From positions 51,462 through 115,461 of the IMG/VR virus record IMGVR_UViG_3300045988_105372: a stretch of 64,000 bases of DNA. One strand, 5' to 3'. The notes below the pieces were generated by a model. The model was not told the DNA's origin, searched no databases, and was given only the letters and a program-made list of their open reading frames with translations. Position 1 is the first letter of the stretch. The number at the start of each line of letters is the position of its first letter. The position numbers and the translations under genes are program-made. The DNA is from a virus. Below, in pieces: positions 1,814-57,549 of this stretch.

Positions 1814-1873
1814 CTGTATTATGATTTAGTTAAGATGACTATATATAGATTTGTACAAGAAGCAAATAAATTT

Positions 1874-3776: not shown

Positions 3777-3779
3777 TAT

Positions 3780-4043: not shown

Positions 4044-5569
4044 TAATTATTTCCTTTAATAGTTCCCATCAAAATATCTTTATCTTTTACAATAGTATAA
4101 TTAATACTCCATTTAGTATGTCCAAAATTAGCTGTAATATAATTACTACTACCATACATACTACCTACTGATATATAATCAAATCGTTTACCAGTAGTAT
4201 AAGCATAATTATGTAAATCACCTTTTACTACATAAATATGAGGACTACATATACCTTTTTCTGCTATATAATTAGCAAAGAATAATTCAGTCTGAGGATT
4301 TAAAGTAAGAGGAAATTGTCTAGTCTGAGAATTATTATCTTTACCATGAGCATATAGGAACTGATGATCTCCAATGATAAAGTTATCAATAGGATAGTTA
4401 CTAATATAACTCTTAATATTATATTTAGTTAAATATGCAGCTAAGAGTTTTTGATTTAACCATTCAAAATCCCCACCATGATTAGATTCTCCTATAGAGA
4501 GATAATTAAAATCTTCACTTTTTACTTTTACTGTAAGAGTAGCAAAAAACTCCATCATACACTCTATAAATGCTTCACTAATTTCTTTATTATCAAGAAT
4601 CTCAGGAAGCTCATGACCTCCTCTAGTAGTTTCTTTATTGAACCCATCAATAGAATCTCCAAGATTAACTACATATACAGAATGATATTCTTGTCCCACA
4701 AAAGATTCCACAATTCTAGATAATCTAGATTTAATTTCTGGAACATCATAAGAAGGTAACTGTACAAAACTACTATATTTAGCATTATAAGCTCCAATAT
4801 GTAAATCAGATAACCATATAATTAAATCAGGATATTTTGCTTCTTTATTATTAATATTTACTGGAAGCTCTTTATAATCCTTTACTGTATTTTTAATAGT
4901 ATCTTCTATAAGTTCCTTATTTAAAGACTTAGAGGTTTCCTTAGTTAACTTAGTAACTAAAGCTCTTAAATCCTTTACCTCATCTTTCTCTATTCTTTTT
5001 AAGAAATCATTCTCTTTTTCCCTAAGATGCATTTCTTTTAATTCATCCTCAGTATATTCTTCATACATATGAGGAGCAAATGGAGAGGATGCTTTAGTAA
5101 TATTAAAAGCTCGTAAAATTCTTTTAAAGTCAATAAGAGAATAATCTGGGAAATATCTGCTGACAATCTGCTGGGTTAAACCAGAACCGTAATAAGTATA
5201 CATTCTATATACACTATTCATTTCGTTTCTAGTAAAGACTCCTGTGATTGCGGGCTTATTTCTTCTGAAAATCTCAAACTTATATCCAGTAATTTTACCA
5301 GTCTCCTCGTCTCTTATTTCCCAAGTATTAGAAGCATCATCCGTATCTTTCTTTACTTCTTTTTTCTTAGTATCCTTTAGTCTATCATATAATTCCAATA
5401 TCTTCTTATCATCTTCATCTTTATTTTCTTTCTTTCTAAGATTTCTCATTGTAATATATACAGTATTTATATTTTTTCCTGATATAGTACACTGAGCTTT
5501 TAAAGAACGATTATTATTAATTGCATCATTAAAGAACTTAATATAAGAAGATTTTGTTGCTTGTTTCAT
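4043..5569 (-). CDS. calcineurin-like metallophosphoesterase domain protein (508 aa)
   Basis: motifs LSDLHIG (DxH), NLGDSIDG (GDxxD), ESNHGGD (GNH[DE]-like), YAHGK, GDLHNY in C-terminal half. Confidence 0.6.
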   Translation of the reverse strand: MKQATKSSYIKFFNDAINNNRSLKAQCTISGKNINTVYITMRNLRKKENKDEDDKKILELYDRLKDTKKKEVKKDTDDASNTWEIRDEETGKITGYKFEIFRRNKPAITGVFTRNEMNSVYRMYTYYGSGLTQQIVSRYFPDYSLIDFKRILRAFNITKASSPFAPHMYEEYTEDELKEMHLREKENDFLKRIEKDEVKDLRALVTKLTKETSKSLNKELIEDTIKNTVKDYKELPVNINNKEAKYPDLIIWLSDLHIGAYNAKYSSFVQLPSYDVPEIKSRLSRIVESFVGQEYHSVYVVNLGDSIDGFNKETTRGGHELPEILDNKEISEAFIECMMEFFATLTVKVKSEDFNYLSIGESNHGGDFEWLNQKLLAAYLTKYNIKSYISNYPIDNFIIGDHQFLYAHGKDNNSQTRQFPLTLNPQTELFFANYIAEKGICSPHIYVVKGDLHNYAYTTGKRFDYISVGSMYGSSNYITANFGHTKWSINYTIVKDKDILMGTIKGNN

Positions 5570-5640
5570 ACTTTTTTAAAAATTAGATAGCTGTTACGCC
5601 TTTATAAATAAAAGTATCTAGTAAAATAAAAGGTATCTAA

Positions 5641-5677
5641 ATTAAAAAAGGCAGATACTCTCGCGAGCACCTGCCTT
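5641..5677 (-). terminator. rho-independent terminator (stem AAGGCAG/CTGCCTT, then U-run on minus strand)
   Basis: hairpin 5648-5677 with A-run 5642-5648 on plus (U-run in minus sense), upstream of 5700..6380 start and downstream of 6473..6832... placed between genes. Confidence 0.5.
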
Positions 5678-5699
5678 ACTTTAAAAATTATGAATAAAA

Positions 5700-6380
5700 T
5701 TAAAATTCCAAACCAAAGAACATATAGCGACCATTCTTAGTACTCTTAGATGGAGTATAAGTTACAGTAGCTACTACTGGGTCAGAGCCAATAGACTCCT
5801 TACCCTGAACGATATCGATCTGACCCTTAAAGCCCTTCTTAATAAGTTCCTTAGCCATTTCCTTAGCTGCGGTCTTAGTAGGACGAATAACCTTTGTATC
5901 TGGTTCAACACGACCAGTATCGTTACCATCCTTATCAAGAATTGCTTCACCAGCCTTTTCGTTCTTTACACGCTCAGACTTCAAAGTCTTCAGTACTTCC
6001 TTTGTATCGTGGTCTACCAAATCAAACTTCTTCTGAGTATCACGCTTACCCTCAGTCTTAATATCAACAACCTTCCAAGGACGCTCACGTGTACTTACAA
6101 CAGCACTAGAAAGAGTTACAATGAAACCACTACCAGGAGCATTCTTAGTCTTTTTCTTCAAATACTCCAGCTTAAATTCCTTCTCATCATTAGAAGTTAC
6201 TTTAGCATTCTTCTCATGGAACTTCTTCCATGCCTGTGTTGCATCACCATTAATATGAAAATTCTCTTTCTCTACCTGTGCTACTGCTACTTCCTTTGTT
6301 TCTGCACTTACTTCAAAACTCTTAAAATTAAAAATTTCACTCATTTTCAAAAATATATTAACATTAATTCTTATTATCAA
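5700..6380 (-). CDS. hypothetical Lys/Glu-rich protein (226 aa); locally GC-richer than surroundings
   Basis: ORF track; composition. Confidence 0.5.
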   Translation of the reverse strand: MIIRINVNIFLKMSEIFNFKSFEVSAETKEVAVAQVEKENFHINGDATQAWKKFHEKNAKVTSNDEKEFKLEYLKKKTKNAPGSGFIVTLSSAVVSTRERPWKVVDIKTEGKRDTQKKFDLVDHDTKEVLKTLKSERVKNEKAGEAILDKDGNDTGRVEPDTKVIRPTKTAAKEMAKELIKKGFKGQIDIVQGKESIGSDPVVATVTYTPSKSTKNGRYMFFGLEF

Positions 6381-6472
6381 ATCATCTGCGATGTTTTTTC
6401 TTTATCTTTGTAAGGCTAATATAATCTATATTTTTTGCCTCCAAAAAGAAAATTATAAAAAAATTAATTTTT

Positions 6473-6832
6473 TTAGAATGGAAGAAATTTTCCCATTAAT
6501 TCTCTTATTTTTGTTGGCATATCTTTTGGTTGCACGCCAAATGTTGGAAAATCGGTACATCCATATGAAAAATCCTCAGTGATGATAGCAATAGCTTGTA
6601 TTGTATCTTCATCAAGACCTGTTTTTTCTGCTAATTTAGCAGTTACTTCATAATAAGTAACTCCAGGTTTTTTCTTCTTCATAGAATTTACCATATATCC
6701 AAGTAATGATATAAGTGCAAATTTTAAATTTATACTTTCCCCTAAAGACCCTAAACTAAAGTATTTACGATATAAATCGGAAAGTTTAGTATAATCAGGT
6801 CTCTTGAGTAATTCCGAATCCCTCATAACCAT
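6473..6832 (-). CDS. hypothetical protein (119 aa)
   Basis: ORF track. Confidence 0.45.
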   Translation of the reverse strand: MVMRDSELLKRPDYTKLSDLYRKYFSLGSLGESINLKFALISLLGYMVNSMKKKKPGVTYYEVTAKLAEKTGLDEDTIQAIAIITEDFSYGCTDFPTFGVQPKDMPTKIRELMGKFLPF

Positions 6833-7841
6833 GCATACAATAGAATGCTACTAATTTAAGAAGATGAGTAAACTCTTTAAATCCTTTATTAAAAAGTTCT
6901 CTAGTCATAGGAACTACTTTAGTATTAAAATTTGGAATAGTTTCTACTACTAAGAAATTACTTCTAATTTTAGGATTCTCAATGTTATAATTCTTCTTAG
7001 CAGCCATAGTTAATAACCAACTATATAAAGCCATCTCTCTATAATAGTGATATTTAATAAGAGCTCCTTTAGCAAAGTTATTTATTAAATCTCCTGTGGT
7101 TTTTAAATCATTTACAGTGATTATTCCTTCTTCTTTATCTATACTATAATTATCAAGTTTAGACTTAATTTTTAGTATAAAAGGTTTATGCTCTGGAGCC
7201 TCTACTAAAACATCTATAAGGAAAGCTATCTCATTACCAATAATTGGTTGTTCTAGTAATCCTTCAGGGTTTAGTAAAGATTGAATTTGCGTATCACTAT
7301 CTAGAGACTCTAGACAGACTTTCAGTTTAGCATGATTTTTAGGATCTGTAAATATTGGTGTTCTAGCATCATTATTTTCTTTTTCAAAAGCTTTTCTATC
7401 ATACCAGTATTGAGCACAGTCTGCTAACACTTTTTCTATTTTTTTATCTGACATTTTATCTTTATAATAATCGCATTTATCAGATGCTTCTAATATAATA
7501 TCATTAGTAACATTGATACCTTGTGTTTTCTTATAAATATAGTCTGCCATTGACCCCATTTTAGCAGTAGGTCTGCTAACATCTGTTAGAAAGAAGTCAT
7601 CAGGTTGTAAAACTAAAGTATGTAACCAACTACCAAATTCCAAACTAGTTGTATTTAACTTAGTCTTACCCCAATTATCAAAGAACTCTGTTGGAGAACC
7701 ATCTTGATCTGGATTTATCTTAGATAATCTAGAGTTTGAGATATAATTATTATACTTTTCTGAGAAATAAGTATTATCATCAATATCTTCAACTCTTAAA
7801 GTCTCTATCAGAGGTTTAATAGAAATTTGACTTAATTTCAC
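6795..7841 (-). CDS. hypothetical protein (348 aa)
   Basis: ORF track. Confidence 0.5.
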   Translation of the reverse strand: MKLSQISIKPLIETLRVEDIDDNTYFSEKYNNYISNSRLSKINPDQDGSPTEFFDNWGKTKLNTTSLEFGSWLHTLVLQPDDFFLTDVSRPTAKMGSMADYIYKKTQGINVTNDIILEASDKCDYYKDKMSDKKIEKVLADCAQYWYDRKAFEKENNDARTPIFTDPKNHAKLKVCLESLDSDTQIQSLLNPEGLLEQPIIGNEIAFLIDVLVEAPEHKPFILKIKSKLDNYSIDKEEGIITVNDLKTTGDLINNFAKGALIKYHYYREMALYSWLLTMAAKKNYNIENPKIRSNFLVVETIPNFNTKVVPMTRELFNKGFKEFTHLLKLVAFYCMHGYEGFGITQET

Positions 7842-8352
7842 GTAAGTAATTGTTAAAGTCTTCCGACTCTTTTATACATTCATACCCATATTCTATCTCT
7901 TCTTTATCTAAACTATAAATCTTACCATAAGGACCCCATTTTTCATTAGATTCAGAAGCTATTAATAAGCAAGGCAATCCTGCTAGATTCATCTGAATAA
8001 AATTACTAATAGAATCATCAATGAAAATATCAACTCTACCTTTTATATACCGAGCTTTATTAGCACGCTGGCACAAGACTTGATAAACAGGTTTACTAGG
8101 ATAACCATTATTCTTTAGCCATGTTTTACTATAGTCTTTATTGCATACTCTTTTAGTACAATATAATTCAGGTATAAAGTTTATTTTATTTTTTATTGGA
8201 AGATTTATCCACCATTCTCTGTCTTTTATTAAAACTTGTTGTACATTTTTTGTTATTTCTCCATCAGACTTAGGATATCCAAATCTTTTTAAATATGGAT
8301 TCATAAACTCATTTAATGTATCATCTAAATCTAAACCAATTCTTAATTTCAT
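7816..8352 (-). CDS. HAD-superfamily 5'(3')-deoxyribonucleotidase-like protein (178 aa)
   Basis: N-terminal MKLRIGLDLDDTLNEF = HAD motif I (DxDxT). Confidence 0.55.
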   Translation of the reverse strand: MKLRIGLDLDDTLNEFMNPYLKRFGYPKSDGEITKNVQQVLIKDREWWINLPIKNKINFIPELYCTKRVCNKDYSKTWLKNNGYPSKPVYQVLCQRANKARYIKGRVDIFIDDSISNFIQMNLAGLPCLLIASESNEKWGPYGKIYSLDKEEIEYGYECIKESEDFNNYLREIKSNFY

Positions 8353-8594
8353 AGATTAAATAATTCCTCAATATCTCTTATATATGTTACCCCAATACCT
8401 TTCTTAGCCAATTCAGCTCTGATATTTATCCAGCTATCATTGTTATCAAGAATAGCATATGTATCATCGTCTAAATTTAAGTACTTATCAACTTCTTCTT
8501 TAGCCTTTTCAACAGCTTCCTCATATGAAGATGCAGTTAACTTATGAAGTTTATTTTTATTACTCTGACAAATTGCAAAAATATAATTATTCAT
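8349..8594 (-). CDS. hypothetical protein (81 aa)
   Basis: ORF track. Confidence 0.4.
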   Translation of the reverse strand: MNNYIFAICQSNKNKLHKLTASSYEEAVEKAKEEVDKYLNLDDDTYAILDNNDSWINIRAELAKKGIGVTYIRDIEELFNL

Positions 8595-8779
8595 TTGGTA
8601 TTGTTATATATAATTATCATTATAATAATAAATAATATCATTATGGTAATTGGGAGTGATAAAAATATTACCACTGCTAATGTTATCCAACTCCATAACA
8701 ATATTCCAAAAATCTTAAGTAAAATTAATATTGTACTTATTATAAAATCTATTACTCCTAAGGCTAATAGTTCTCTCAT
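8591..8779 (-). CDS. small hydrophobic membrane protein (62 aa)
   Basis: ORF track; two hydrophobic helices. Confidence 0.35.
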   Translation of the reverse strand: MRELLALGVIDFIISTILILLKIFGILLWSWITLAVVIFLSLPITIMILFIIIMIIIYNNTK

Positions 8780-9285
8780 ATTAAATTATTACTTTTAGAA
8801 TAACATTCTAATAAAGTATAAAAGAAATCCATAGGAATCATTGCTATTGCTCCTGGACTAACACTACCTTCTGTTGGAGCCTTCTTCCAGCATAGCACAA
8901 ATGACTTGTCCTTATAAGGGCAAGAATTTTCTATCTTAAAATATGCTGGAGTATTAGCAGTATGTTTTGCTTGAATATTTATAGGTAATTTTCCAGACCT
9001 ATCAATTATATCAACTTTATTATTATCTGTAAACTTACTCTCTCCTCTAGCACTTACACACTCAGTATACCCCATATCTCTAAGATGATGAATTATATCT
9101 GCTTCCCATGCACTTCCTTTATTTCTAGATTTTTTAGCTTGATAACTCTTTTTAGTATGGCTATCTATCCATTCATATAAAGTGCCATCAGCCATTTTTC
9201 CAGATTTATTACATCTAATTTTAAGAGCTGCTTGACTTATTTTAGTTTTCTCAGAGCATTCCTCTATAGATGTATAATCGTGCAC
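8776..9285 (-). CDS. hypothetical protein (169 aa)
   Basis: ORF track. Confidence 0.45.
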   Translation of the reverse strand: MHDYTSIEECSEKTKISQAALKIRCNKSGKMADGTLYEWIDSHTKKSYQAKKSRNKGSAWEADIIHHLRDMGYTECVSARGESKFTDNNKVDIIDRSGKLPINIQAKHTANTPAYFKIENSCPYKDKSFVLCWKKAPTEGSVSPGAIAMIPMDFFYTLLECYSKSNNLI

Positions 9286-9331
9286 ATCGCCGTTTTTATA
9301 TGTTATTCTAATAGCAGTATTCAGATTCTAA

Positions 9332-10342
9332 TTACTTTTTGACATAGTTACTTAATTTTTTTATATAATACTTTATAAATTTTAAAGTATTCTGTCGACC
9401 ATATTTTTTATAAAAATCACTTATATCTTTTACTTTGAATTTATGAGGTATAAAGAAATAAAGTAATTCTGGATGATTTCTTCTTATCTTAGCCATATTA
9501 AACATTCCAGGTCTATCATTATCATAAAAAGTTACTATATAAGTAAATCTTTCTTTTAGATCATTTAACATATTTTCAGACAACCATTGTGTTTCACTAT
9601 TTGGAGCACAGGCTGTTACACCTAAACCTCTTAAACACATAGTATCCTTCATACTTTTAGTTATAACTAATAAAGTACCTTTTTTAGGTAACTGACTATA
9701 ACCCTGAACCTTTTTAGAGGGCCAATTTGTTAGAAATCTATATTCTTTACGTTTAGGATAATAAATTCTCCACAATTCTTTACCTTGCATTGTTCCTCCA
9801 TAATATCCGAAGATAAAGTTATCTTTGGTCTTTATAGTTTGAATATTACCATTTAAAAATACAGTACGACAAGAATATACTTTATATTTATTTAGTAATT
9901 CTAAAGAAACTCCTTGTTTACCCCACCATTTTAATTCATCTTCTGAGAAATCTTTTATTTCTACTCGTATATCTGCTGGCTCATTTGTTTTAACAAAAGA
10001 AGTGCTTGATTGTATTACAGAATGATAATTATTTTGTCCTTTTAATAAGCCAAAATCTTTAGCTATAATATCTAATGCTTGATGGTATTTACAAGCATAT
10101 TTAGTCATAACTACAGATATAAAGTTTCCATAAAAGCTCCCATTAAAATCATGGAATATAAGTTCTCCTTTAGAGTTACGAAAAAAGGAAGCCGTAGGAT
10201 TTTTATCTTTACGTAAAGGATTACAAATTAATTTTTTTGAAACTTTTACGCCAAGATAATACTCCATATAGGCTTCCTCTGTGTTATATTTAAGTAAGTA
10301 GTCCTTAGTAATATCTGGTTTATAAGAAAAATCTAATTCCAT
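9332..10342 (-). CDS. DNA primase (Toprim domain) (336 aa)
   Basis: LLVITKSMKDTMCL and FYDNDRPG resemble Toprim E and DxD motifs of DnaG-type primases. Confidence 0.55.
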   Translation of the reverse strand: MELDFSYKPDITKDYLLKYNTEEAYMEYYLGVKVSKKLICNPLRKDKNPTASFFRNSKGELIFHDFNGSFYGNFISVVMTKYACKYHQALDIIAKDFGLLKGQNNYHSVIQSSTSFVKTNEPADIRVEIKDFSEDELKWWGKQGVSLELLNKYKVYSCRTVFLNGNIQTIKTKDNFIFGYYGGTMQGKELWRIYYPKRKEYRFLTNWPSKKVQGYSQLPKKGTLLVITKSMKDTMCLRGLGVTACAPNSETQWLSENMLNDLKERFTYIVTFYDNDRPGMFNMAKIRRNHPELLYFFIPHKFKVKDISDFYKKYGRQNTLKFIKYYIKKLSNYVKK

Positions 10343-10365
10343 AAAAACTACTTACTTTATAATTA

Positions 10366-11136
10366 CTACATATCCGCCAGCATAGCATCGAAGTCTTCAT
10401 CTTGAGCCTCCTTGCCTTCAGTAGAGTCAATAGATTTAGCCTCTTCTGAATCAGCTGCTGGTACAGGAGTAGTAGGCTTACGCTTCTCCATATCCTCTTT
10501 CTGCTTAATCTCATAACTAGAGAATGACAATTTATCTTCCTCTAAGCTAGCAAAATTATCACGGATATAGAACTGTCCATCACTATTAATAGCTCCAATA
10601 TCAGGAATCTTAGCAAATACATTACCAGTTTCCTTTGAAATTCCCTTTTCATCCTTTTTCTTTTCCTTACGACCGCTAAGCTTTAAATAAAAGTTTTTAT
10701 TCATACAATGCTTAGTCAATACTGCCTGGAAAAGCTGCATGAATTGGTCAGTACTCTTACAAGCAGGAGCTTTAGTTATAAACAATTCTTTAGCTTTATC
10801 ACCACCTACTACTGTTATAATATGCAGCATAAAACCTTTAAGCTGTTCAAATGCTGAAGGAAGTACATATGGGAATTCTACGCCCTTAGAATCCTTTCTC
10901 TTACCCTCATATCTTTTAGCAGAACTTTCATTAGGATAAAACAATGATTCTTGATAAGTTCCTTGCTCTCCTTCAAAATGAAGTACCAGAGATTTCCAAG
11001 TTGTATTAGGGTCTTGCTTACCTTGACCCTCCTTAACTTCTATACTTTTTAACTGAACGAGATAAATTCCATAAGGACGAAGACCTTTCTTACTTGTAGG
11101 ATTAATATCACCAAGACCACCAAAATTTAAATTCAT
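10366..11136 (-). CDS. hypothetical protein (256 aa), acidic C-terminus (possible ssDNA-binding protein)
   Basis: ORF track; acidic tail DEDFDAMLADM typical of SSBs; weak. Confidence 0.45.
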   Translation of the reverse strand: MNLNFGGLGDINPTSKKGLRPYGIYLVQLKSIEVKEGQGKQDPNTTWKSLVLHFEGEQGTYQESLFYPNESSAKRYEGKRKDSKGVEFPYVLPSAFEQLKGFMLHIITVVGGDKAKELFITKAPACKSTDQFMQLFQAVLTKHCMNKNFYLKLSGRKEKKKDEKGISKETGNVFAKIPDIGAINSDGQFYIRDNFASLEEDKLSFSSYEIKQKEDMEKRKPTTPVPAADSEEAKSIDSTEGKEAQDEDFDAMLADM

Positions 11137-11148
11137 ATTGCTATATTA

Positions 11149-11754
11149 TTAAAGATTATCGAAATTAAAATCATTATCTGAGATTTCTGTATCATCTGCG
11201 TTGCCGTCAATAAGACTAGCCATTTCGTCATCTAATTCATCTTCTGATGCAATATCCTCTGCTTCAGGAACTACATCTTCTTTAATCTCAGGCTCTCGAT
11301 TACCTGTTAATATAAACAATCCATCAATTTTAGGATGTGGAGTGAAAGTAAACTCATTACCATGCTCAGCAAGGTTCTGGTTATTCTTTCCTCTATATGA
11401 AACTGCATTCTTCTGAGTTAATTTATTACCTGACTGCGTACCAAATGTTTCAGCAGCTCCGATAACTAAGCACTCCTTCTTATTAAGTTTCTGCTGTTTA
11501 ATGTCTACCTTATCTCCTGGTTCTACACCAAGAGCCTCAACAGCAGCCTTATTAAGAATATACTTATTCTCCTCAAGAATTAATAGTGGATTAGGATTTG
11601 TATCATCTACTTCTGAATCTTTCTTTTTAGAAGAAGACTTACGAGTAGACGGCTTCTTTACAGAATCATCTTTCAATTCACGTGTATCAGTAAAAATTTC
11701 TCCAGTTTCTTCATTAAGCCACTCGGACTTAATTGTCATTTTAATTAGCTTCAT
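11149..11754 (-). CDS. hypothetical protein (201 aa), acidic termini
   Basis: ORF track. Confidence 0.45.
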   Translation of the reverse strand: MKLIKMTIKSEWLNEETGEIFTDTRELKDDSVKKPSTRKSSSKKKDSEVDDTNPNPLLILEENKYILNKAAVEALGVEPGDKVDIKQQKLNKKECLVIGAAETFGTQSGNKLTQKNAVSYRGKNNQNLAEHGNEFTFTPHPKIDGLFILTGNREPEIKEDVVPEAEDIASEDELDDEMASLIDGNADDTEISDNDFNFDNL

Positions 11755-12496
11755 TTAAAATATTGTCATCATTATTGGTTTCATTATGGTCATCTGCGAT
11801 TTCTTCTTCTTCCTCACCATATTCAAAGTTATGGATAGTATCTAAAACCTTCTGCATATTAGGTTCAATCAGTTTATCTTTAAAACATCCATCAACACTA
11901 CGACAAGTATCATTACCATTGGTTTTGGTTCTAAAGAAATAACTAATATTGCCCTCATCATCAACCTGACGTTCAGTATATAAAATATAAGAAAATAAAC
12001 CATCAATATTTACAGTTCTATCCAACATTTTACCACTAGAATATAACTGCCAATGTTCATCGAGGTCAGTACCAGCATTAATAATATGACTAATGAATAC
12101 TACATTAAGATCTTCACGCAGTTCACTAGCTTCCATGATTAAATCATAGTAATTTTTAGCAAACACAACGTGCTTATCCCAACCTTTTTCAAGGGCAGAA
12201 TCCATTATATTATTTGAAAGACAATAGTTAGCATCATCTACGACTACTGTCTTAATATCAGAACGTAATTTATCAATAATCTTTAACCACTTACCAATAG
12301 TAGTATAATCATTAGACACAAGCCAATTTCCAACTGGCTTCTTATTTACAACTTCAGCTTTCTTGTACTTACGTCTAAATCCAGGAATTTGAAGTTGCTT
12401 GTTAGTACAACTAATGATAAATGTTGATTTATAATCTAAATAACGCAAAGAAGTGCTTTTTCCGGTACCACTCAAACCTGCTAAACCAATAATCAT
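11741..12496 (-). CDS. P-loop NTPase (251 aa), Walker A GLAGLSGTGKST at N-terminus
   Basis: Walker A at residues 4-15; kinase-like or RecA-like. Confidence 0.5.
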   Translation of the reverse strand: MIIGLAGLSGTGKSTSLRYLDYKSTFIISCTNKQLQIPGFRRKYKKAEVVNKKPVGNWLVSNDYTTIGKWLKIIDKLRSDIKTVVVDDANYCLSNNIMDSALEKGWDKHVVFAKNYYDLIMEASELREDLNVVFISHIINAGTDLDEHWQLYSSGKMLDRTVNIDGLFSYILYTERQVDDEGNISYFFRTKTNGNDTCRSVDGCFKDKLIEPNMQKVLDTIHNFEYGEEEEEIADDHNETNNDDNILNEAN

Positions 12497-13575
12497 AAAC
12501 TATAGTCTAATTTATTTTTCACTTTTTCATCTTTATCTTCATTCTTTATTGTATTATCTGTTGAACTGTTATTTGTAGCTCGATATCTAGAATAATCAAA
12601 GATTTCTTCTGGCTTAGGCATTTCCATCCACTTATTTACTGCTCCGTCAAAGAAACAGCAATCAGCTACTTGGTTTTCTCCATATCTTGACTTTAGTACA
12701 AGAATACTTCGAAACCTATAACCCATTTCTTTAACTTGGTAACCTCTATAAGTTGTTCTTTTATCAACTTGAGGATTATATACAGCTAAAATAATTTCAG
12801 AATTCTCTGAAACAGTGGATGTTTCCTTAATATCCTCCACCATTGGCTCCATGAAAGCTTCATTCTTTTTTCTTTCCATGTTAGCCACTGCTCTATTGGA
12901 TTGCATAACAATAATTGGAGATAATCCTGTTTTATTTCTAATGATAACTAATTTATTAGTATAATCATCAATTTCTCCTTTTCTGTTTCTTCCATTGGAT
13001 GGTTGGATCAATCCAACATGGTCAGTTACTGAAAGTATTACTTTTTCAGGGTCTTTCGGAATATATTTATTCTCTGTAAATTCTCCTTCTTTTTTAAGCT
13101 CTTCCATTGTAACTTTTATGAGCCTATCAGAATTAAAAGAGCCTTCGTATATAGTTAGTACTTTATATACTTTTTCTAGCCAATCATATCCTAGTTGTAC
13201 ATACTCATATAAATCATCAGGTAAAATATAATCTTTACCTATAGATAATATTTGTTTAGCAGTTACAACAATATGATAGGTATCATATAAATAGGTACTT
13301 AATAATTTAGCTATAATAAAGTCTTCTTTCATTTCAAGAGCAAAGAAAATAATTTTTAATTTATTATCTTCTAAATGTTCTTTTAAAGGAGCATATATGT
13401 AAGAATATAATACACATGAACTTTTACCTTGTCCTGAACTCGCAAATAAAAGAGTCATGGTACTTTTAGTAATACCTCCTATTAATTCTTCCAATTTAGG
13501 AAGACCCATACTAAATCCTTGATTAAATCCTTGTCTACCAAGCTCTATCGAACGTTTAAAACTTTCTAAACTCAC
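12493..13575 (-). CDS. DnaB-like replicative helicase C-terminal (RecA-fold) domain protein (360 aa)
   Basis: Walker A LLFASSGQGKSS, Walker B-like ILSVTDHVGLI. Confidence 0.5.
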   Translation of the reverse strand: MSLESFKRSIELGRQGFNQGFSMGLPKLEELIGGITKSTMTLLFASSGQGKSSCVLYSYIYAPLKEHLEDNKLKIIFFALEMKEDFIIAKLLSTYLYDTYHIVVTAKQILSIGKDYILPDDLYEYVQLGYDWLEKVYKVLTIYEGSFNSDRLIKVTMEELKKEGEFTENKYIPKDPEKVILSVTDHVGLIQPSNGRNRKGEIDDYTNKLVIIRNKTGLSPIIVMQSNRAVANMERKKNEAFMEPMVEDIKETSTVSENSEIILAVYNPQVDKRTTYRGYQVKEMGYRFRSILVLKSRYGENQVADCCFFDGAVNKWMEMPKPEEIFDYSRYRATNNSSTDNTIKNEDKDEKVKNKLDYSL

Positions 13576-14183
13576 AGAGTGGTGATTGAATTATAATTCA
13601 TACCTGAATCTCCATTCTTTAAAGCTTCAAGGTCTTCCCATTTTTCATCTACAATAAATGTAGCTAAGCTATAATTAATAATACCATTATCAGTATTAGC
13701 TTCCCAATCTAGTAAATCAATAATCTTTTTATGAAGTTCTTCATTCCAATGGATTTTCTTTCCATAAGTTCTATAAGCATCTTCAAGACTATTAAACTTT
13801 TTAGAAACACCTAGCATACTAGTTAAGCATCCATTAATATTTCTAAATCTAGGATAATGTTCTCTAAGTTCTTTTCCCATTTCAAAGGAACTCTTAGCTA
13901 AACATTTTAGGAAGTTTTTATTAAATGGTATCTCTTCAGGAACTAGTTTCATTCCTGGAATAATTTTATAACTTTTAAGGATAAGACCTTTATCTTGTAA
14001 AGATTTAAGTATATCTATAAAACTTCCTACATACTTTTTATCAATAGCCAAATACCTACGAAGATAATCTTCTGAATAATCTTCTATATAAGCATTAATA
14101 GCTTTAATAACAAATAATTCAGTAGGAGTAATATTATATTTTTCTAAAATTGTTATTTCTTCATCAATGTTTAAATCAAACAT
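13572..14183 (-). CDS. hypothetical protein (203 aa)
   Basis: ORF track. Confidence 0.45.
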   Translation of the reverse strand: MFDLNIDEEITILEKYNITPTELFVIKAINAYIEDYSEDYLRRYLAIDKKYVGSFIDILKSLQDKGLILKSYKIIPGMKLVPEEIPFNKNFLKCLAKSSFEMGKELREHYPRFRNINGCLTSMLGVSKKFNSLEDAYRTYGKKIHWNEELHKKIIDLLDWEANTDNGIINYSLATFIVDEKWEDLEALKNGDSGMNYNSITTL

Positions 14184-14261
14184 ACAGTAATTCGGATAAT
14201 TAAAAGTCTTCCATACTGTAATTAAGTTAATCTCTTCTCAGAGCGATATTAATACATAGAT

Positions 14262-15392
14262 TCAGAATCTAAAATCAAATTTAGGAACTATCTTTTCACC
14301 TGGGGTAAAGTCTTTACCTTGTAATACTTTATCCAATTCTGATTCGTCTATAGTTATAAAAGAATCTCCCTTATGAGAATCATAAAACCACTTGGTCTCT
14401 TGAGTCCTATTTAATACTATATTGAATATCTCTGCTGTCTTACCTTTTTCAAAGCGGATTGATCTTCCTCTCCGTTGACAAGCTCTAGTAGTTGAACTAT
14501 CTAATCCAAATATAATAGCTACAGAAAGACCTTTTACATCAAGTCCTTCATCAGCTTTTTTTACTGTAGATAATAGAGTCACCTTTCCAGAGTTAAAATC
14601 TTCAATAGCTGTAGCACTTCTTTTCTTAGAAGTTCTACTAGAATATACAGTAGCATTAGGAATTTTTTCTGCCATTTTAATATTATTAGCAAAAGTTATT
14701 ATTTTTTTATCCTTTCTAGCTTCTATAATTTTCTTTACTATTTCAATTTTCTTTGAATGATTATTTATGAAAGCTTTTTTCTCATGCATAGTAGACCAAA
14801 ATCTGATAGCATGATAATTTATATTTTGCAATACTTCAGATTTTTTGTTAGGATCACTACACATAGAATCTCTTAGGAGTAGTTTATTTCGCCAACCCAT
14901 AGGACCGGCTAATTTATTAACTAACTCCCAAGAGAATCCGAAGAATTCAAAATGAGAAATGAATTCTTTATTTATTTTTTCATATTCTTCTAAATCATCA
15001 ACATTTACTAAGACTAGATATTCTTTATATGGGCTAACCCAACCATTTGCAAGACAAGTATTAATATCAATAGTATCAATTACTGGACAGTATTTTGCTA
15101 ATATTTTATCTCTACCATCAAGACGCTCAAAAGTAGCTGTAAGACCTAAGATAAATTGGTATTTTACTACTTCAAATAATCTTACAAAAGTCTCAGCTGC
15201 ATATCTATGCGCTTCATCCAGTACTAAAAGATCATATTTGGCAGGATGTTTTATTACAGTGTTTATTATTTGTACATCACAACTTAATCCTAGCCCATTA
15301 GAATCTATATGACCACACCATTGTTTTTGTAAAGTTTCTGTTGGCACAATTATTAGTACTCGATATTGTGGAAAGTGTTTTAACACTGTTTT
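14262..15392 (-). CDS. SF2 (DEAH-box/SNF2-like) helicase, C-terminal exon/segment carrying KT of motif I, motifs Ia (LIIVPTETL), II (LDEAH), III (TATFER), V, VI (QRRGRSIR)
   Basis: ORF track 14262..15386 begins with GTG; in-frame extension AAA ACA (K T) gives ...KTVLKHFPQYRVLIIVPTE; motif I N-terminal part lies 350 nt upstream. Confidence 0.6.
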   Translation of the reverse strand, partial: KTVLKHFPQYRVLIIVPTETLQKQWCGHIDSNGLGLSCDVQIINTVIKHPAKYDLLVLDEAHRYAAETFVRLFEVVKYQFILGLTATFERLDGRDKILAKYCPVIDTIDINTCLANGWVSPYKEYLVLVNVDDLEEYEKINKEFISHFEFFGFSWELVNKLAGPMGWRNKLLLRDSMCSDPNKKSEVLQNINYHAIRFWSTMHEKKAFINNHSKKIEIVKKIIEARKDKKIITFANNIKMAEKIPNATVYSSRTSKKRSATAIEDFNSGKVTLLSTVKKADEGLDVKGLSVAIIFGLDSSTTRACQRRGRSIRFEKGKTAEIFNIVLNRTQETKWFYDSHKGDSFITIDESELDKVLQGKDFTPGEKIVPKFDFRF

Positions 15393-15741
15393 AATACAGT
15401 TTAGTCCTACTCTGGATTTCGATTTTGTTATCGTATAGTTTTTTATCTATACTTCTTACTATTACTAGCAAGTCCCGCATAAATTTTTACCCACTTATTT
15501 CAGTTGGGGTATCGAACACTCGTGGAGAAATTATATTCTAATGAAAATAGTCTAGCTATTAACTAGATTATTTATTAGTTTCATTCTCTATGCTGTACGG
15601 TGTAGAAGATTCTTTAATTTCTTCTATTACCTCGGTATTACCCTCTATAGGGCTTTCACCGATTTTGCTCGATGATAATTCCGAAGATTCCTCTATCGGA
15701 ACGGCATCGTAATTAACAGGTATATGACCCGCTTTTACAGT
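15393..15741 (-). other. ~349-bp intervening element inside helicase Walker A (between GFG and KT codons); candidate intron or other insertion
   Basis: upstream ORF ends ...GTIVASTGFG then loses helicase similarity; downstream resumes KTVLKHF; flanked by ACTGTAAAA / ACTGTATTAAAA direct repeats; contains R/S-like CCAGAGTAGGACTAAAC. Confidence 0.35.
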
Positions 15742-15873
15742 ACCAAATCCAGTAGATGCGACTATTGTCCCTACACAACGATTTTTTATCCATTTTCTAC
15801 GACACTCTTCTTGTCGTTCATCTCTAGTGATTTTATGAAATAGTTCTCCTTCAATCAGAGAGTTTGTAGCCAT
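15568..15873 (-). CDS. helicase N-terminal segment (Q-motif region + first half of Walker A ...VGTIVASTGFG) followed by out-of-context 57-aa tail
   Basis: ORF track; ASTGFG matches AxTGxG of SF2 motif I. Confidence 0.5.
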   Translation of the reverse strand: MATNSLIEGELFHKITRDERQEECRRKWIKNRCVGTIVASTGFGTVKAGHIPVNYDAVPIEESSELSSSKIGESPIEGNTEVIEEIKESSTPYSIENETNK

Positions 15874-16837
15874 TGTAATCAGCTACTGCTTTGATTTGTT
15901 TAATACGCTTCTCCCACTCTGAAGCTTGCCATCTAACCTTATTTTCGAGATGCAGTAAAACTTTATCTCTTAAGGTTTCCAATTGTACTTTAGTCAGATC
16001 ATTATAACGCTTATCATATTTATCCTTACGGAAGGTAAGCATTGCGCTAAACTCTTTTAGAGTTAAGCCTTTTCTATCATCAATTTTTAAAACAAGACCT
16101 TTTCTGTCTTCAGGATTCTTAGGGTCTCTCAATTTAATATTTAGAAGTTCAGCAACTTGCTTAATTCTATCTATTAAACGACCATTCTCGTCTTTCTTAT
16201 TTAATTCTAATAACTCAGAACGTGTAAACCACAATCCAAGCTCAGTAATAAATGTAAGAGTAATGTGTTTACGGACACATTTACCTAAAGCAGATAAACA
16301 AGCTTCTCTAACGATATACAATGGTAATGAAGCAAACATGGTAAATGAATCTTCATCACTATTCATAATATCATTAAGGGTCCACTCTTTAAAGAGAGTC
16401 TCTGCAATAGCACTAACATTTGTCTCGCCCTCACCACTTTCTGCATTCTCTTTAGCAAACTGTTCTGCCTGAGCAGTAATCTGCTGATTGAGCATATTAA
16501 AGAAACTAGTTCTTACAATACCTTGTCTAGTACTACCTTCACCTGGGTACAATAGCCAAATTAAGAACAACTCAGCATTACAGCGAGTTCTTTGATCTTC
16601 AATCTGTTCCAACAAAACTCGTCGTCCAGGATTTTCATAGTTGTCACTATAAAGCATTGATTCACAATGTTTATATGCTTTACGTAATTCTTCTTCAGTC
16701 ATATCTACCATTTTCATAGAAGACTGAATGCGTTCACCATCTACAATTTTTCTGGAACCTTTCCAGAGAAATGTTTCTACATCATTATTCTTAGCTTCAA
16801 AAGCTTGATTGAGTTTATCACCTAAAACTGTTGTCAT
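15851..16837 (-). CDS. hypothetical protein (328 aa)
   Basis: ORF track. Confidence 0.5.
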   Translation of the reverse strand: MTTVLGDKLNQAFEAKNNDVETFLWKGSRKIVDGERIQSSMKMVDMTEEELRKAYKHCESMLYSDNYENPGRRVLLEQIEDQRTRCNAELFLIWLLYPGEGSTRQGIVRTSFFNMLNQQITAQAEQFAKENAESGEGETNVSAIAETLFKEWTLNDIMNSDEDSFTMFASLPLYIVREACLSALGKCVRKHITLTFITELGLWFTRSELLELNKKDENGRLIDRIKQVAELLNIKLRDPKNPEDRKGLVLKIDDRKGLTLKEFSAMLTFRKDKYDKRYNDLTKVQLETLRDKVLLHLENKVRWQASEWEKRIKQIKAVADYNGYKLSD

Positions 16838-28714: not shown

Positions 28715-29083
28715 TTAATTCTGAATCATAGCACGAAGCTCTTCAATAGATTTATTCTCAAGAGCTTCGTCCTCTTTCTTTGCGATAAGCTCAGCAATAC
28801 GTTTGTTACGAGCATCAATCTGTGCTCTATTAATATTGTCTTTACGAGCCTTTAATTTAATATTAATTACATCTTTTACGATGCTGAAACGAAGTTCATC
28901 ATCATTTTCTTCAGCTGGAAGCTCTTCAATGAAAGACTTCTTAGGAGCCTCACTAATTTTCTTATCCAGCATAATAGCTAAAGTGTTAAGATTCTGCAGA
29001 GATAAGTCGAACAAATCTTCTGTAGTAATCATACCCTTGTTTGTCTTAAAACGTAATTTCTTTTGTAATGCTTCTTTGTACAT
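28715..29083 (-). CDS. hypothetical protein (122 aa)
   Basis: ORF track. Confidence 0.45.
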   Translation of the reverse strand: MYKEALQKKLRFKTNKGMITTEDLFDLSLQNLNTLAIMLDKKISEAPKKSFIEELPAEENDDELRFSIVKDVINIKLKARKDNINRAQIDARNKRIAELIAKKEDEALENKSIEELRAMIQN

Positions 29084-29095: not shown

Positions 29096-30160
29096 TTAAA
29101 TGTTTACTTTATAAATTTTACCTGAATCTACTCTAACCATAAGTGAATTACGAGAAGTAGCTATAAATCCTAAACCACTCATCTGATTATTATCATAAGG
29201 AGTTAAAGCTTTAGATGCTAATACTTCAAATACTCTCTTATGATTCTTAGTGAGTTCGTCTTTAAGATACTCATTAAAATATCCACGAACAGCATCTGGA
29301 TTCTTACAATCCTTCAACATAAAGAAATAGTGCTTAGCACCTACCTTATTATTTCCCCAGTAATTTGGAGATAAACATATAGCAGACACTTCAACAAAGT
29401 TCTGAGTCTTTACTCCCCAAATTTCTTTAGATGCTGTAGTACTACTTAAATGTTCTTTAGTAAAGATAACTTCACGTCCATTAGAAGTAAAGTCTAATAC
29501 TGGAACATCGCTCTTATGAGGGACGTCTTTATCATACACATAAGTATGAACAACTCCATTGAGTTCTACTTCTACTTCAAATCCTAAATCAATATTTTCA
29601 ACTTTAGCAAAGTTGTTAATAAATACTTTATAAGTACCTGCTTTAGGAATTCCTGAGAAAATGATATTTTCTACAGCATTGCGAGAGAATTTCTTAGGAT
29701 TATTACGTTCTTCAAAAGCACTACCTCCACAGGCATTCATATCTACATCAAGAAGGTCTGCTTTATTACCATAATAAATGTGTCCATAAGGACTATCCAT
29801 ATGTAAATCTAAATCATCGTAATTATACCAATGAAGAGAGATTCTCATATAGCCATCTACCTTACCTCCTACTTCTTTAACACGTTGTTTAATAGCATCA
29901 GAGATATTACCATTATATGCCCAAGCAAACCCATTATTCCATTTAAACATAGAAGGAGCTTCTTTATTAACTGGGGCAGTAAGAGTTACTAAATTATTAT
30001 TTAACTTATTGTCAAAGAATAATTCAAGCTTACTAGCCTTAGAAACAATATTATTAAGGAACTCTTCCATAGTTGTTGGAATCGCAGTCTTCTCAAAGTC
30101 TGTAGCAGTTTTGCTAGTATTAGAAGTTTCATTCATAAGAGAATCAAATCCTCCTAACAT
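29096..30160 (-). CDS. C-terminal part (354 aa) of a ~680-aa protein split by a 13-bp tandem duplication
   Basis: removing one copy of ACTCAGGTAGAAA (30286-30311) fuses 30270..31142 in-frame to this ORF. Confidence 0.5.
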   Translation of the reverse strand: MLGGFDSLMNETSNTSKTATDFEKTAIPTTMEEFLNNIVSKASKLELFFDNKLNNNLVTLTAPVNKEAPSMFKWNNGFAWAYNGNISDAIKQRVKEVGGKVDGYMRISLHWYNYDDLDLHMDSPYGHIYYGNKADLLDVDMNACGGSAFEERNNPKKFSRNAVENIIFSGIPKAGTYKVFINNFAKVENIDLGFEVEVELNGVVHTYVYDKDVPHKSDVPVLDFTSNGREVIFTKEHLSSTTASKEIWGVKTQNFVEVSAICLSPNYWGNNKVGAKHYFFMLKDCKNPDAVRGYFNEYLKDELTKNHKRVFEVLASKALTPYDNNQMSGLGFIATSRNSLMVRVDSGKIYKVNI

Positions 30161-30269
30161 TCTCTTACGAGTTTCTCTATTTACAAAGATAACATCTTCA
30201 ATAGATATATCTTCTACTTTAGCATGACGACGCTCTAAAGCATCTTCATAGCCAAGTTCTACTACAGTT

Positions 30270-31142
30270 TTATAAGCATTTTCTACCTGAGTTTTCTACC
30301 TGAGTTTTAGTGATAATACCCTTAGGTCTCTTATAATTATAAGGAGCAACCATAGCTTCAAACTTCTTAACTGAACTTTCAACATTGTTAGTATCAGTTA
30401 TGTCTTTAAGAAGCTGACCTATAGCACTATTAAGTATATGTGTTACAGCATCAGGAAGTACACAAGAAGATATCCAAGCATAATTATCTAACTCAAAACC
30501 TTCCAAGTGCTTATTCTCTATTGTATCAAGAGCAGTCTTTAAAGCACTCACTTGACGTAGATAAGTGTCACCTCTATAGAGGTTATCATCTGCAATTAAG
30601 TCTAATACTGTTTGTACAGAATTATAGTTAATTTCAGATAAAGTTCTTATCCATACATCATGTGAAGATTTAGCACCTGCACGGAATGTTGGAGTCTGAG
30701 ACTTATCCATAATTAAATTACTTGTAGGAGTAGCATAAAAATGGTTCCAAGTAATTATTTCTTTAGAAGGTAGTATTTGCTGATTACATTTACAACCCAT
30801 TGTAGTCTCTTCCGTAACAAATGCATTCCTAATTTTAGTATTTTTAAGCACTTGTAACATATTGTCTACAACTTTAGCAAACATTCCTTCAGCATGAACA
30901 TCCTCCCAGTAAGAATGTATTTTATAATTCTCATCTACAGAGACTAATGCTCCATAGCGAGTAATGAAATGTTTACAATTTACACAGTTAAATTCTTGAC
31001 GTACGGCTCCTTCAGGGAAAGATTCCATATAAGCCATCCATAAAAATTCTTTTTGAGTGTCAAGAATAAAGAGATGCTTGTTCTCTTTAATCATCTTATT
31101 ACATGCTTCTGTAACAAGATTTCTAAAATCTAAGTATTCCAT
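30270..31142 (-). CDS. N-terminal part (290 aa) of split ~680-aa protein; frame terminated 9 codons after the 13-bp duplication
   Basis: ORF track; see 30286-30311 repeat. Confidence 0.5.
   Translation of the reverse strand: MEYLDFRNLVTEACNKMIKENKHLFILDTQKEFLWMAYMESFPEGAVRQEFNCVNCKHFITRYGALVSVDENYKIHSYWEDVHAEGMFAKVVDNMLQVLKNTKIRNAFVTEETTMGCKCNQQILPSKEIITWNHFYATPTSNLIMDKSQTPTFRAGAKSSHDVWIRTLSEINYNSVQTVLDLIADDNLYRGDTYLRQVSALKTALDTIENKHLEGFELDNYAWISSCVLPDAVTHILNSAIGQLLKDITDTNNVESSVKKFEAMVAPYNYKRPKGIITKTQVENSGRKCL
30286..30311. repeat. perfect 13-bp tandem duplication ACTCAGGTAGAAA x2 (minus sense) causing a +13 frameshift
   Basis: plus strand TTTCTACCTGAGT TTTCTACCTGAGT. Confidence 0.8.
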
Positions 31143-31190
31143 AAAATTTTTAAAAGTTAGAAAAAGAGGGAGAGATTATTCCCTCCCTCT
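31143..31190 (-). terminator. rho-independent terminator (AGAGGGAG...CTCCCTCT + U-run)
   Basis: GC-rich 8-bp stem 31165-31190, A-rich 31143-31164 on plus. Confidence 0.5.
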
Positions 31191-31204: not shown

Positions 31205-32758
31205 TTATACATTTACATTGGTGTTTTCTACATCGCCATTAACGTTAACATTCTTATTAACCTTAGCATCAATGGTGTTAGCCTTCATAATGTCTGCCAT
31301 ATCTACACCTGTGGCATCTTTTACAATGTCACGAGTCTGCTTAATAATAGCAGGTACATTACCAGAAATACCAGAAGCCTCAGAACCATTAGTTCCATAA
31401 ACTGTCATATTGCTAATCTTACTCATAGGTTCAGCAATATACTTAGCCATATCAGGAAGAACTTTCTCATTAAGTTTAGAAAGCATGTCAATTACAGCAA
31501 TAGAGCCATACTTACTGTATGCTTCAGCCTTCTTCTGCATAGCCTCAGCTTCTGCAAGACCCTTAGCCTTCACACCTTCAGCTTCTGCCAAAAGTTTAGC
31601 TTTAGTACCTTCAGCTTCTGCAGTCAAGGTCTGTTGAGTAGCATATGCTTCAGCTTCACCCTTAGCACGAATACCTGCTGCCTCCTGCTCCTGAGAATAA
31701 CGATTAGCTTCAGCCTTAGCTTTTACAGCCTTAGCAGTTTGCTCTGCTTTATAAGCTTCAGCCTCAGCCTCACGCTTCTGCTTCTCCAAAGCAGCCTGAG
31801 CATCAATTTCTGTCTGATACTTGTCAGCATCAGCCTTAGCATTTACATCTGCAAGATACTCATTCTGCTTAATCTTAATCTTCTCCTCAGACAAGGTCTG
31901 TTCTTTACGAGTCTTCTCAATATCAGCATCTACAGTCTTGATATTAATAGTTTTCTGCTGCTCTTGCTGCTGAATTTCATATGCGGCATCAGATTCAGCC
32001 TTCTTAATATCAGATAATCTCTTCAGTTCGGCTCTCTTAATAGCTAATTCATTATTACGTTCAGCAATAATGGTGTCAGCCTTTACTCGTGCTTCATTAG
32101 CCTCATTGTCAGCCTCAGCCTGAGCCTTAGCTACATCTCTATCAGCATTAGCACGGGTAATCTTAGCATTCTTCTGAATAGCTGCTGTATTATCAGCTCC
32201 CAAATCACGGATCAAGCCTTTCTCATCAGTAATATTCTGAATATTGCAAGACAAAATCTCAAGACCTAACTTAGTCATATCAGGAGCTGCCTTCTTCTGA
32301 ATTTCATCAGAGAATGCATCTCTATCAGTGTTAATCTTAATCAAGTCAAGAGAACCTACTACTTCACGCATATTACCCTCCAAAGAATCTTTCACTTGAG
32401 CTGCAATCTGCACAGAATTCATATTCAAGAAGTTCTTAGCTGCAAGTCTAGTGCCTTCTGTATCAGGTTTTACCCTAACTTTACATACGGCATCTACCAT
32501 TACATCCAAGAAATCATGAGTAGGAACTGGTTGTGAAGTCTTAACATCAACTGTTACTTGACCAAGATATACTTTATCTAATCGTTCAAGTACAGGAATT
32601 TTTACTCCACCACCACCGATAAGTACTCGTGGCTCCTTACGAAAACCTGAAAGAATGTACGCCATCGAAGGAGGAGCTTTAACATACATTGTAGCAATAA
32701 TAACAAGCAGTACAATAATAACGACTGCGATAACACCAATAAGAACTAAATGTTCCAT
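31205..32758 (-). CDS. flotillin-like SPFH/band-7 domain protein with N-terminal TM helix and long Ala/Glu-rich coiled coil (517 aa)
   Basis: TM helix LVLIGVIAVVIIVLLVIIA, SPFH-like region, EAEA/KAKA coiled-coil repeats. Confidence 0.55.
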   Translation of the reverse strand: MEHLVLIGVIAVVIIVLLVIIATMYVKAPPSMAYILSGFRKEPRVLIGGGGVKIPVLERLDKVYLGQVTVDVKTSQPVPTHDFLDVMVDAVCKVRVKPDTEGTRLAAKNFLNMNSVQIAAQVKDSLEGNMREVVGSLDLIKINTDRDAFSDEIQKKAAPDMTKLGLEILSCNIQNITDEKGLIRDLGADNTAAIQKNAKITRANADRDVAKAQAEADNEANEARVKADTIIAERNNELAIKRAELKRLSDIKKAESDAAYEIQQQEQQKTINIKTVDADIEKTRKEQTLSEEKIKIKQNEYLADVNAKADADKYQTEIDAQAALEKQKREAEAEAYKAEQTAKAVKAKAEANRYSQEQEAAGIRAKGEAEAYATQQTLTAEAEGTKAKLLAEAEGVKAKGLAEAEAMQKKAEAYSKYGSIAVIDMLSKLNEKVLPDMAKYIAEPMSKISNMTVYGTNGSEASGISGNVPAIIKQTRDIVKDATGVDMADIMKANTIDAKVNKNVNVNGDVENTNVNV

Positions 32759-32836
32759 AAATTTGTAAATGTTTAAATAATAAAAATTAAATATCTAAGA
32801 ACTAACTGATGTTAATTCCAAGGGGGCATTTATTTT

Positions 32837-33991
32837 TTATAATTCGTAATTTACAAGACCTGTAGCTTTACTTGTAGAATAGCAACTATTAATTATATAT
32901 ATTCTAATATTCCCATAATCAGTCATAGTTACTACATATTTTTCTTTAATACTTACCATCAATATACGATCATCCTCAAAATAATCTCCAGGTTCCAGAT
33001 ATTTTAACTCTTTATCCTCAGTAGTGGAACCATAATCCTCATTGAACTTAGTAGACCATTCATTATAGAATTTTCTTTCTTCACTAGTATATTTCTCCCA
33101 ATCTTTCTTTTTAATTTCTTTAAACTTATAAAAAGCTTTTAATATATTCTTTATATTTTCAGGAGTAAATTTCAAGTCACAATGTCTGATTTGTACTTCT
33201 CTATACAAATAAGTAAATCTAGAGAATTCAATATTAAAAGTTTCTTTAATATTAGGAAGAGCTTTCACTCCATGAATATTAATTTCAGTTGCTATAGCTT
33301 TAATTAAGTCTATAGTAATAATATTCATAGAATGAGTTAACTCTATAACCTTCTCTATAGCAGTTTTATCTTCCAAGATATCATTAAGAATCTCTCTAGT
33401 AACTTCCTCAGAAAGATTACTGAAAGACTTTTTATATCTTATTCTAGAAGGTCTACCAAGAAGATTTGGGTCTACATTTAACTCATTAGTAGTAAGTAAA
33501 AATACCTTACGATAAATAGAGTTATAAGTACCATCCATGAAAGAAAGAACATCAGAAGAATTTTTAAATTCTTTCTCATATTCATCAAAGAAGAAGATAC
33601 AGTCAAAATCAATAGATGTAGATAAATATTTTATTAATTTACTATTAGTATCAACCCCCATTGATTGCACTAAGATTACAGGAAGCTGTAAACGATTACA
33701 AAGTTCCTTTGCAACGACCGTCTTACCAGTTCCTTTGATTCCATCTAGCAGAACACCTAAATTTCCTGTAGTGTTCTCATATGTCTTTAAGACATAATCA
33801 ATAAATTTTTGGTTTAGACCATACAGTTTGTAATCAAACGTAAAAGACTCAGCGATTTTACTTAAGTAAAATCCAGTCATTGAGACTTTTACTTCATAAA
33901 TACCTTTCGGTAATCCTTCAGGATGAGATACTGTTGTTGCACTACCCTGACTAAAAACGTTGCCATCTTGCAACCAAATTTGTTTACCCAT
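32837..33991 (-). CDS. AAA+ ATPase (384 aa)
   Basis: Walker A GIKGTGKT, Walker B IFFFDEYEK. Confidence 0.6.
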   Translation of the reverse strand: MGKQIWLQDGNVFSQGSATTVSHPEGLPKGIYEVKVSMTGFYLSKIAESFTFDYKLYGLNQKFIDYVLKTYENTTGNLGVLLDGIKGTGKTVVAKELCNRLQLPVILVQSMGVDTNSKLIKYLSTSIDFDCIFFFDEYEKEFKNSSDVLSFMDGTYNSIYRKVFLLTTNELNVDPNLLGRPSRIRYKKSFSNLSEEVTREILNDILEDKTAIEKVIELTHSMNIITIDLIKAIATEINIHGVKALPNIKETFNIEFSRFTYLYREVQIRHCDLKFTPENIKNILKAFYKFKEIKKKDWEKYTSEERKFYNEWSTKFNEDYGSTTEDKELKYLEPGDYFEDDRILMVSIKEKYVVTMTDYGNIRIYIINSCYSTSKATGLVNYEL

Positions 33992-57145: not shown

Positions 57146-57549
57146 AATCTTTAACTTTTTAAAATGTTTGTTAATTTTTTGTTTGGTTTTTACTCCAAAT
57201 ATGTGGGGGGCTCTAAGGGGCAGTGAACACCCGTGTAAATCACTAAATTTAATTAAAAATTAACTACTTCAATAAAAGCCATTAATGTAACAGTTCCTAA
57301 AAAATAACGGGGGGGAATATATAAAGTAACCTTAAAAATTTTAAAATTTTAAAAATGTAAAATATTTTTCACGTATAAGATAAGAAGAGTATTTTCATAA
57401 CTCCTTGATTATCAGACACTTACAAATTTTTTATGCACTCACAGATTTATTTTATTCATTGGAGGATTCACTTCATTCATTCCTACATTTGTTCTATTCA
57501 TAATTTTTGTGACATAATTTTTGTGAATTTATTTTGAATCATATAAAAA

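Follow-up and report, generated by a model that had tools for sequence, protein, structure and literature searches.

Results

One interrupted gene on the minus strand

Does the minus strand between positions 29096 and 31142 of this phage sequence encode two adjacent genes, or a single gene interrupted by a short duplication? The sequence analysed, hereafter the window, is a 64,000-nucleotide stretch of IMG/VR virus record IMGVR_UViG_3300045988_105372 (positions 51,462 to 115,461 of that record) and comes from a human gut phage of roughly 160-180 kb with 30% GC. A 13-bp unit, ACTCAGGTAGAAA (minus strand), occurs twice in the whole window, head to tail, near the end of the upstream open reading frame (ORF), and nowhere else. 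A first-pass annotation made from the sequence had described a perfect 13-bp tandem duplication here and had proposed that it is a recent event splitting one gene of ~680 aa, a view that was upheld when an otherwise identical genome with an intact gene was found. The features of the locus are:

29096..31142, minus strand: the whole interrupted gene, DUF8224 / phrog_1735 family, 677 aa after removal of one repeat copy
30270..31142, minus strand: ORF1, 290 aa, consisting of native residues 1-284 and six out-of-frame residues, SGRKCL
30293..30305, minus strand: first copy of the 13-bp unit ACTCAGGTAGAAA, its register being arbitrary within the periodic tract 30279-30308
30280..30292, minus strand: second, extra copy of the unit, with a +1 frame shift and a TAA at 30270-30272 six codons on
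30161..30269, minus strand: apparent intergenic gap of 109 nt, coding in the +1 frame for most of residues 285-323
29096..30160, minus strand: ORF2, 354 aa, residues 324-677, comprising a TerD-like beta-sandwich and a C-terminal part

The length of the unit is not a multiple of three, and the two copies are 100% identical (30280-30305). Tandem Repeats Finder also recovered the repeat, as a tract at 30279-30308 with a period of 13, 2.3 copies and 100% matches. The minus strand reads ...ATC ACT AAA ACT CAG GTA GAA AAC TCA GGT AGA AAA TGC TTA TAA... at this site, and the junction from copy to copy is GTAGAAAACTCAGG. Three details of the first-pass description needed adjustment: its placement of the repeat at 30286-30311 was off by ~6 bases, the first copy begins 11 rather than nine codons before the ORF1 stop, and the gap between the ORFs had been given as 110 nt.

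Deletion of one copy in silico fused ORF1 in frame with ORF2, as had been claimed, and produced a stop-free 677-aa ORF with the predicted junction, ...KTQVENAYKTVVELGY.... ORF2 lies in the +1 frame relative to ORF1 and starts at the internal Met324, a methionine that does not serve as a start codon in relatives; the first few codons of residues 285-323 fall inside the tail of ORF1. Residues 1-675 of the 677 in the repaired protein aligned with positions 2-671 of 673 in the phrog_1735 profile (E 2.8e-200), in keeping with the earlier statement that the gap is ordinary coding sequence. Homologues are annotated, in precomputed form, with PF26675 (DUF8224); the local copy of Pfam lacked this model, and the repaired protein thus had no Pfam match there. 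A large protein collection held more than 2170 homologues, and almost all of the 120 best listed were 665-677 aa long. More than 2000 DUF8224 proteins are of 665-677 aa, and identity within the family to the repaired protein ranges from 34 to 99%. The repaired protein is thus like other members of the family in being full length.

Positions 29096-31142 of the window are one conserved gene, not two. The interval should be annotated as a single disrupted DUF8224 gene, that is, a frameshifted pseudogene or a sequence needing correction, and it would be wrong to record it as two hypothetical proteins and a spacer.

The duplication is private to one sequence

Comparison with related genomes for a single-copy version had been proposed as a check, and 80 related loci were available for it: GenBank MT835492.1, 78 IMG/VR contigs and one ENA contig. 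In a tblastn-based check of intactness, 78 of the 80 gave a single stop-free, full-length match, and the two exceptions bear unrelated lesions. None of the 80 was split at the duplication point; a search among them for relatives that carry the duplication and conserve the two halves as separate genes likewise returned none. All 17 close relatives (L001-L017) have one copy and showed a 13-bp gap exactly at the site when aligned to the window, the second copy being missing from these and from L080. In MT835492.1 (97% identical) the unit is present once and the 677-aa ORF is intact.

Two ENA contigs allowed a closer comparison. ERZ1314614 NODE_75 (95 kb, coverage 120) matched window positions 19096-41142 (22,034 bp) with 0 mismatches, and its sole gap was the 13 bases. 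ERZ919630 k127_40273 (181 kb; run ERR414441, PRJEB5224, human gut) was 100.000% identical to window positions 1-15569 and 39585-60100, and over the interval containing the gene its offset to the window changed by exactly 13 (net shorter). Over the ~56.6 kb compared with these two contigs, the duplication was the only difference, with 0 mismatches. Two ENA contigs encode the exact repaired protein (P0121). The only contig on which the exact ORF1 and ORF2 products are known is a JGI/IMG contig of 159,495 bp, presumably the window's own source, and a 30-mer across the duplication junction had no match in IMG/VR or JGI metagenomes. Judged from these sequence comparisons, the duplication is private to its lineage and very recent.

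Predicted consequence for the protein

The 13 additional bases would shift the reading frame by +1 after codon 284 and bring in a stop six codons later, so that the product would be the N-terminal domain only (residues 1-284). Residues 324-677 could then be made only by inefficient internal initiation, and residues 285-323, 39 aa that neither fragment encodes, would be lost either way. In an alignment of 30 homologues no part of the family is better conserved than the segment where the break falls (MAPxNYKRPxALITKKQIExAQKTVEELGLxDALPRRHAxVEDISVNDVLFVNRDTRKRM), and 12 invariant positions are lost: L292, G293, L298, R300, H302, A303, D307, V313, F315, V316, N317 and R318. The ratio of nonsynonymous to synonymous substitution rates (dN/dS) against close relatives was 0.09-0.30 in both halves of the gene, which argues that it is under purifying selection in this lineage.

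An AlphaFold model had a mean predicted local distance difference test score of 71, with residues 1-265 confident and 293-343 of low confidence, followed by a beta-rich C-terminal part. ORF1 spans the confidently modelled N-terminal domain, including the invariant C53 and C56. Whereas other genes in the window are preceded by A/T-rich leaders, Met324 is preceded by ordinary coding sequence, so ORF2 would not be expected to be translated efficiently on its own. The two-copy allele is most likely a null or a severely impaired form of the gene.

As an observation on gene starts in general, no Shine-Dalgarno-like motif was found in 20 minus-strand gene start regions of the window (e.g. 31143-31167 and 32759-32783), whose leaders are A/T-rich; GC in the phage is 30%. 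Such leaders without Shine-Dalgarno motifs are typical of phages of Bacteroidota hosts.

Origin of the duplication

The 13-bp repeat at 30280-30305 is no chance match. Across 40 simulated windows under a first-order Markov model there were 0 perfect tandem duplications with a period of at least 13, and for periods of 10-30 the mean was 0.15 per simulated window, compared with two in the real one. In the ancestral single-copy sequence, ACT-AAAA-CTCAGGTAG-AAAA-TGC, the 13-mer that was duplicated is flanked by a 4-nt direct repeat (AAAA...AAAA). Because this direct repeat bounds the 13-mer, the periodic tract is 30 nt long rather than 26; runs of at least four matching bases at a lag of 13 occur at 2.2% of window positions.

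The AAAA-N9-AAAA microhomology points to polymerase slippage. A polymerase may have slipped back between the two AAAA tracts and copied AAAACTCAGGTAG again; such flanking microhomology is the textbook signature of (Streisinger-type) slippage. One copy could be lost through the same process, which would amount to simple reversion and not to a regulated switch. Slipped-strand mutants of the T4 rII and lysozyme genes are alike in several respects: a short unit repeated perfectly head to tail, a flanking direct repeat in the ancestor, a non-triplet length, a stop within a few codons, single-copy relatives and revertibility in principle. The difference is not an essential one: they were selected in the laboratory, whereas the present allele belongs to a metagenome-assembled gut phage and is known from assembly alone.

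The second perfect tandem duplication in the window is a 14-mer, CATAATTTTTGTGA, present twice at 57499-57526. It is intergenic, lies just upstream of a plus-strand ORF starting at 57550, and may be a regulatory repeat. It is shared with an otherwise identical ENA contig (L091) and hence is not specific to one assembly.

Other lesions in the same gene

DUF8224 homologues with disruptions of other kinds were found in four relatives:

L014, 6001-8031: DUF8224 homologue, E299* (GAG>TAG), 15 codons from the duplication
L017, 5543-7571: DUF8224 homologue, two 1-nt deletions
L003, 6001-6003: DUF8224 homologue, start codon ATG>ATT
L093, a Logan contig 89% identical, 2743-4770: DUF8224 homologue, W79* (TAG) and Q574* (TAA)

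Excluding the window, three lesions were counted in ~12,200 codons of DUF8224 genes, compared with one (W6* in the AAA gene of L008) in ~31,000 codons of well-conserved neighbouring genes. The per-codon rate is ~7 times that of the conserved neighbours, an excess that is not significant (p ~0.07) and is at most suggestive of a conditionally dispensable gene. Reassignment of stop codons in the relatives was considered as an explanation and rejected, since no single recoding fits: TAG replaces a Glu codon in L014 and an invariant Trp codon in L093, where a Gln codon is in turn replaced by TAA.

The nonsense codon in L008 lies at Trp6 of an AAA ATPase gene (3176-4303), and sporadic lesions thus occur in neighbouring genes as well.

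Alternative explanations

A recent slipped-strand mutation, which the first-pass annotation had listed among several possibilities, is the best explanation in light of the single-copy relatives and the microhomology, and the two-copy sequence is probably a real, private null or crippled allele in the phage population. Several points weigh against this. The two ENA assemblies lack the duplication and have 0 mismatches to the window over ~56.6 kb; they are independent assemblies, with contig names of the MEGAHIT style in one and the SPAdes style in the other, and the two-copy version is on record from a single contig. The duplication could thus be an artefact of assembly, scaffolding, consensus calling or library polymerase chain reaction in a phage that is truly single-copy with an intact 677-aa gene, which we consider possible if somewhat doubtful. 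The complete identity of the assemblies suggests the same sample or individual; they are evidently of the same strain and possibly from the same sample, and a minority variant caught by one assembler would also be consistent with the data. It is also from conservation alone that we infer loss of function, and a working two-piece protein is a formal possibility, given the low confidence of the AlphaFold model over residues 293-343. Against an artefact, de Bruijn graph assemblers are not known to generate k-mers missing from the reads, and the k they usually work with is far larger than a 13-bp repeat. The window contains no N and no other mismatch or indel was seen across the 56.6 kb, indicating that apart from the duplication the assembly is clean. 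The AAAA microhomology bears the mark of a polymerase event rather than of a concatenation error, although polymerases in vitro could leave the same mark. Other loss-of-function alleles of the DUF8224 gene, moreover, occur naturally in relatives.

The remaining alternatives accept the duplication and assign it a function or another origin. On/off phase variation, also raised in the first-pass annotation, would require one-copy and two-copy states to interconvert by slippage at a useful rate, with selection keeping the population mixed, for example by favouring the off state of DUF8224 where a host defence senses the protein. Reversion is inherent in tandem duplications, the duplication site is the only difference between otherwise identical genomes, and the same gene carries independent lesions in L014, L017, L003 and L093. 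However, 80 of 80 relatives have one copy or a diverged equivalent and no repeat tract, which argues that this is not an evolved contingency locus; the relatives' lesions are nonsense, start-loss and frameshift changes that do not readily switch back, and their enrichment is not significant, with neighbouring genes also sporadically hit. The contingency loci of Haemophilus, Neisseria and Campylobacter are similar in that a change in repeat copy number toggles the reading frame, but their units of 1-7 nt are repeated many times and occur in every strain in variable number, as opposed to 13 nt x 2 in one sequence. We consider such a switch very unlikely. A broader version, in which both alleles coexist in one gut phage population, DUF8224 is turned off and on reversibly by slippage, and loss of this conserved, conditionally dispensable gene is repeatedly selected, for example as an escape from a host defence that detects the protein, would explain the different knock-out lesions in four relatives, one of them only 15 codons from the duplication; it too seems very improbable. 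Programmed ribosomal frameshifting or a functional split, with both ORFs expressed either as a +1 fusion or as subunits, would fit the +1 relationship of the frames, the 26-nt window between an upstream TAG in the ORF2 frame and the ORF1 TAA, the position of the break after a confidently folded domain, and the existence of partial-length PHROGs families (phrog_23228, matching residues 222-668, and phrog_25920, matching 17-144). Yet none of the 80 relatives, some of them 97-100% identical, shows the two-frame layout; the overlap, GAA AAC TCA GGT AGA AAA TGC TTA TAA, contains no known +1 shifty site and no run of A or T long enough for transcriptional slippage; and a -1 shift at a -1 heptamer would lead into the wrong frame. 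A split would also discard 39 conserved residues, and ORF2 has no start context resembling those of other window genes. Known programmed sites (G/GT, dnaX and prfB-type) share the arrangement of two overlapping frames and one longer product; they differ in being conserved and having a defined slippery sequence, neither of which applies here. With no slippery motif and no conservation across the 80 loci, we rejected programmed +1 frameshifting, which had been suggested earlier, and transcriptional slippage; a conserved split gene was rejected as well, with no relative split at this point, no other contig carrying the exact ORF1 and ORF2 products, and residues 285-323 lost. Together these possibilities are extremely unlikely. 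We give next to no credence to the footprint of a mobile element, namely a 13-bp target-site duplication left after excision. Mobile elements are carried by this phage group, as seen from a LAGLIDADG-type ORF in the AAA gene of 6 of 17 relatives and from variable HNH, GIY-YIG and DUF723 genes. Nevertheless, none of the 17 close relatives has an insertion at the duplication site, and no element between two copies of the 13-mer was found there; target-site duplications are not produced when homing endonucleases or introns move, bacterial insertion sequences do not typically leave clean two-copy footprints on excision, and the AAAA microhomology fits slippage. The duplication is an ordinary frameshift mutation or an error, not a new kind of element, and nothing about it challenges current understanding.

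Gene neighbourhood

Directly downstream of the DUF8224 gene is a small gene of a second family:

28715..29083, minus strand: 122-aa gene, phrog_2018

A phrog_2018 homologue directly follows DUF8224 in 59 of 62 distant phage loci (34-39% identity). The local gene order is the usual one for the family, and the repaired protein resembles other DUF8224 members in having this downstream partner. Should the two-copy allele be real, a widespread and uncharacterised gene of large phages would have been knocked out naturally, and the phage and its intact sibling (~56.6 kb identical) would form a matched pair usable for probing the roles of DUF8224 and phrog_2018. The phage turns up frequently in human gut assemblies, with 2849 member sequences in the 90% protein cluster and contigs of up to 173-181 kb.

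Several other genes vary among relatives. An AAA ATPase gene (32837..33991) is uninterrupted in the window, with an empty site at 33712-33723. In 6 of the 17 close relatives an insert of ~1.1-1.2 kb (e.g. L001 2447-3630) breaks the gene immediately behind its Walker A motif (GIKGTGK). Within the insert lies a 220-aa ORF that bears the LAGLIDADG-like motifs FADGYIS and FDGDGCL; judging by these motifs, the insert is probably a mobile intron. Among collinear relatives 97-99% identical (L081-L092, compared over window positions 1-64000), genes of the HNH, GIY-YIG and DUF723 homing-endonuclease types are variably present. A 374-aa helicase ORF (14262..15386, in the region 14262-15903) covers just the end of the ResIII domain and Helicase_C, while relatives carry an intact gene of 429 aa (L082) or a 212-aa gene with Helicase_C only (L081, L083 and L084), which suggests a variable intervening element or a split in the helicase gene. 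An SPFH/flotillin-like gene (31205..32758) contains a 33-bp in-frame tandem repeat at 31545-31622 (2.4 copies, 77% matches) in the Ala/Glu/Lys-rich coiled-coil part of the protein; L004 has one additional 33-bp unit, and the copy number of this repeat thus varies in frame.
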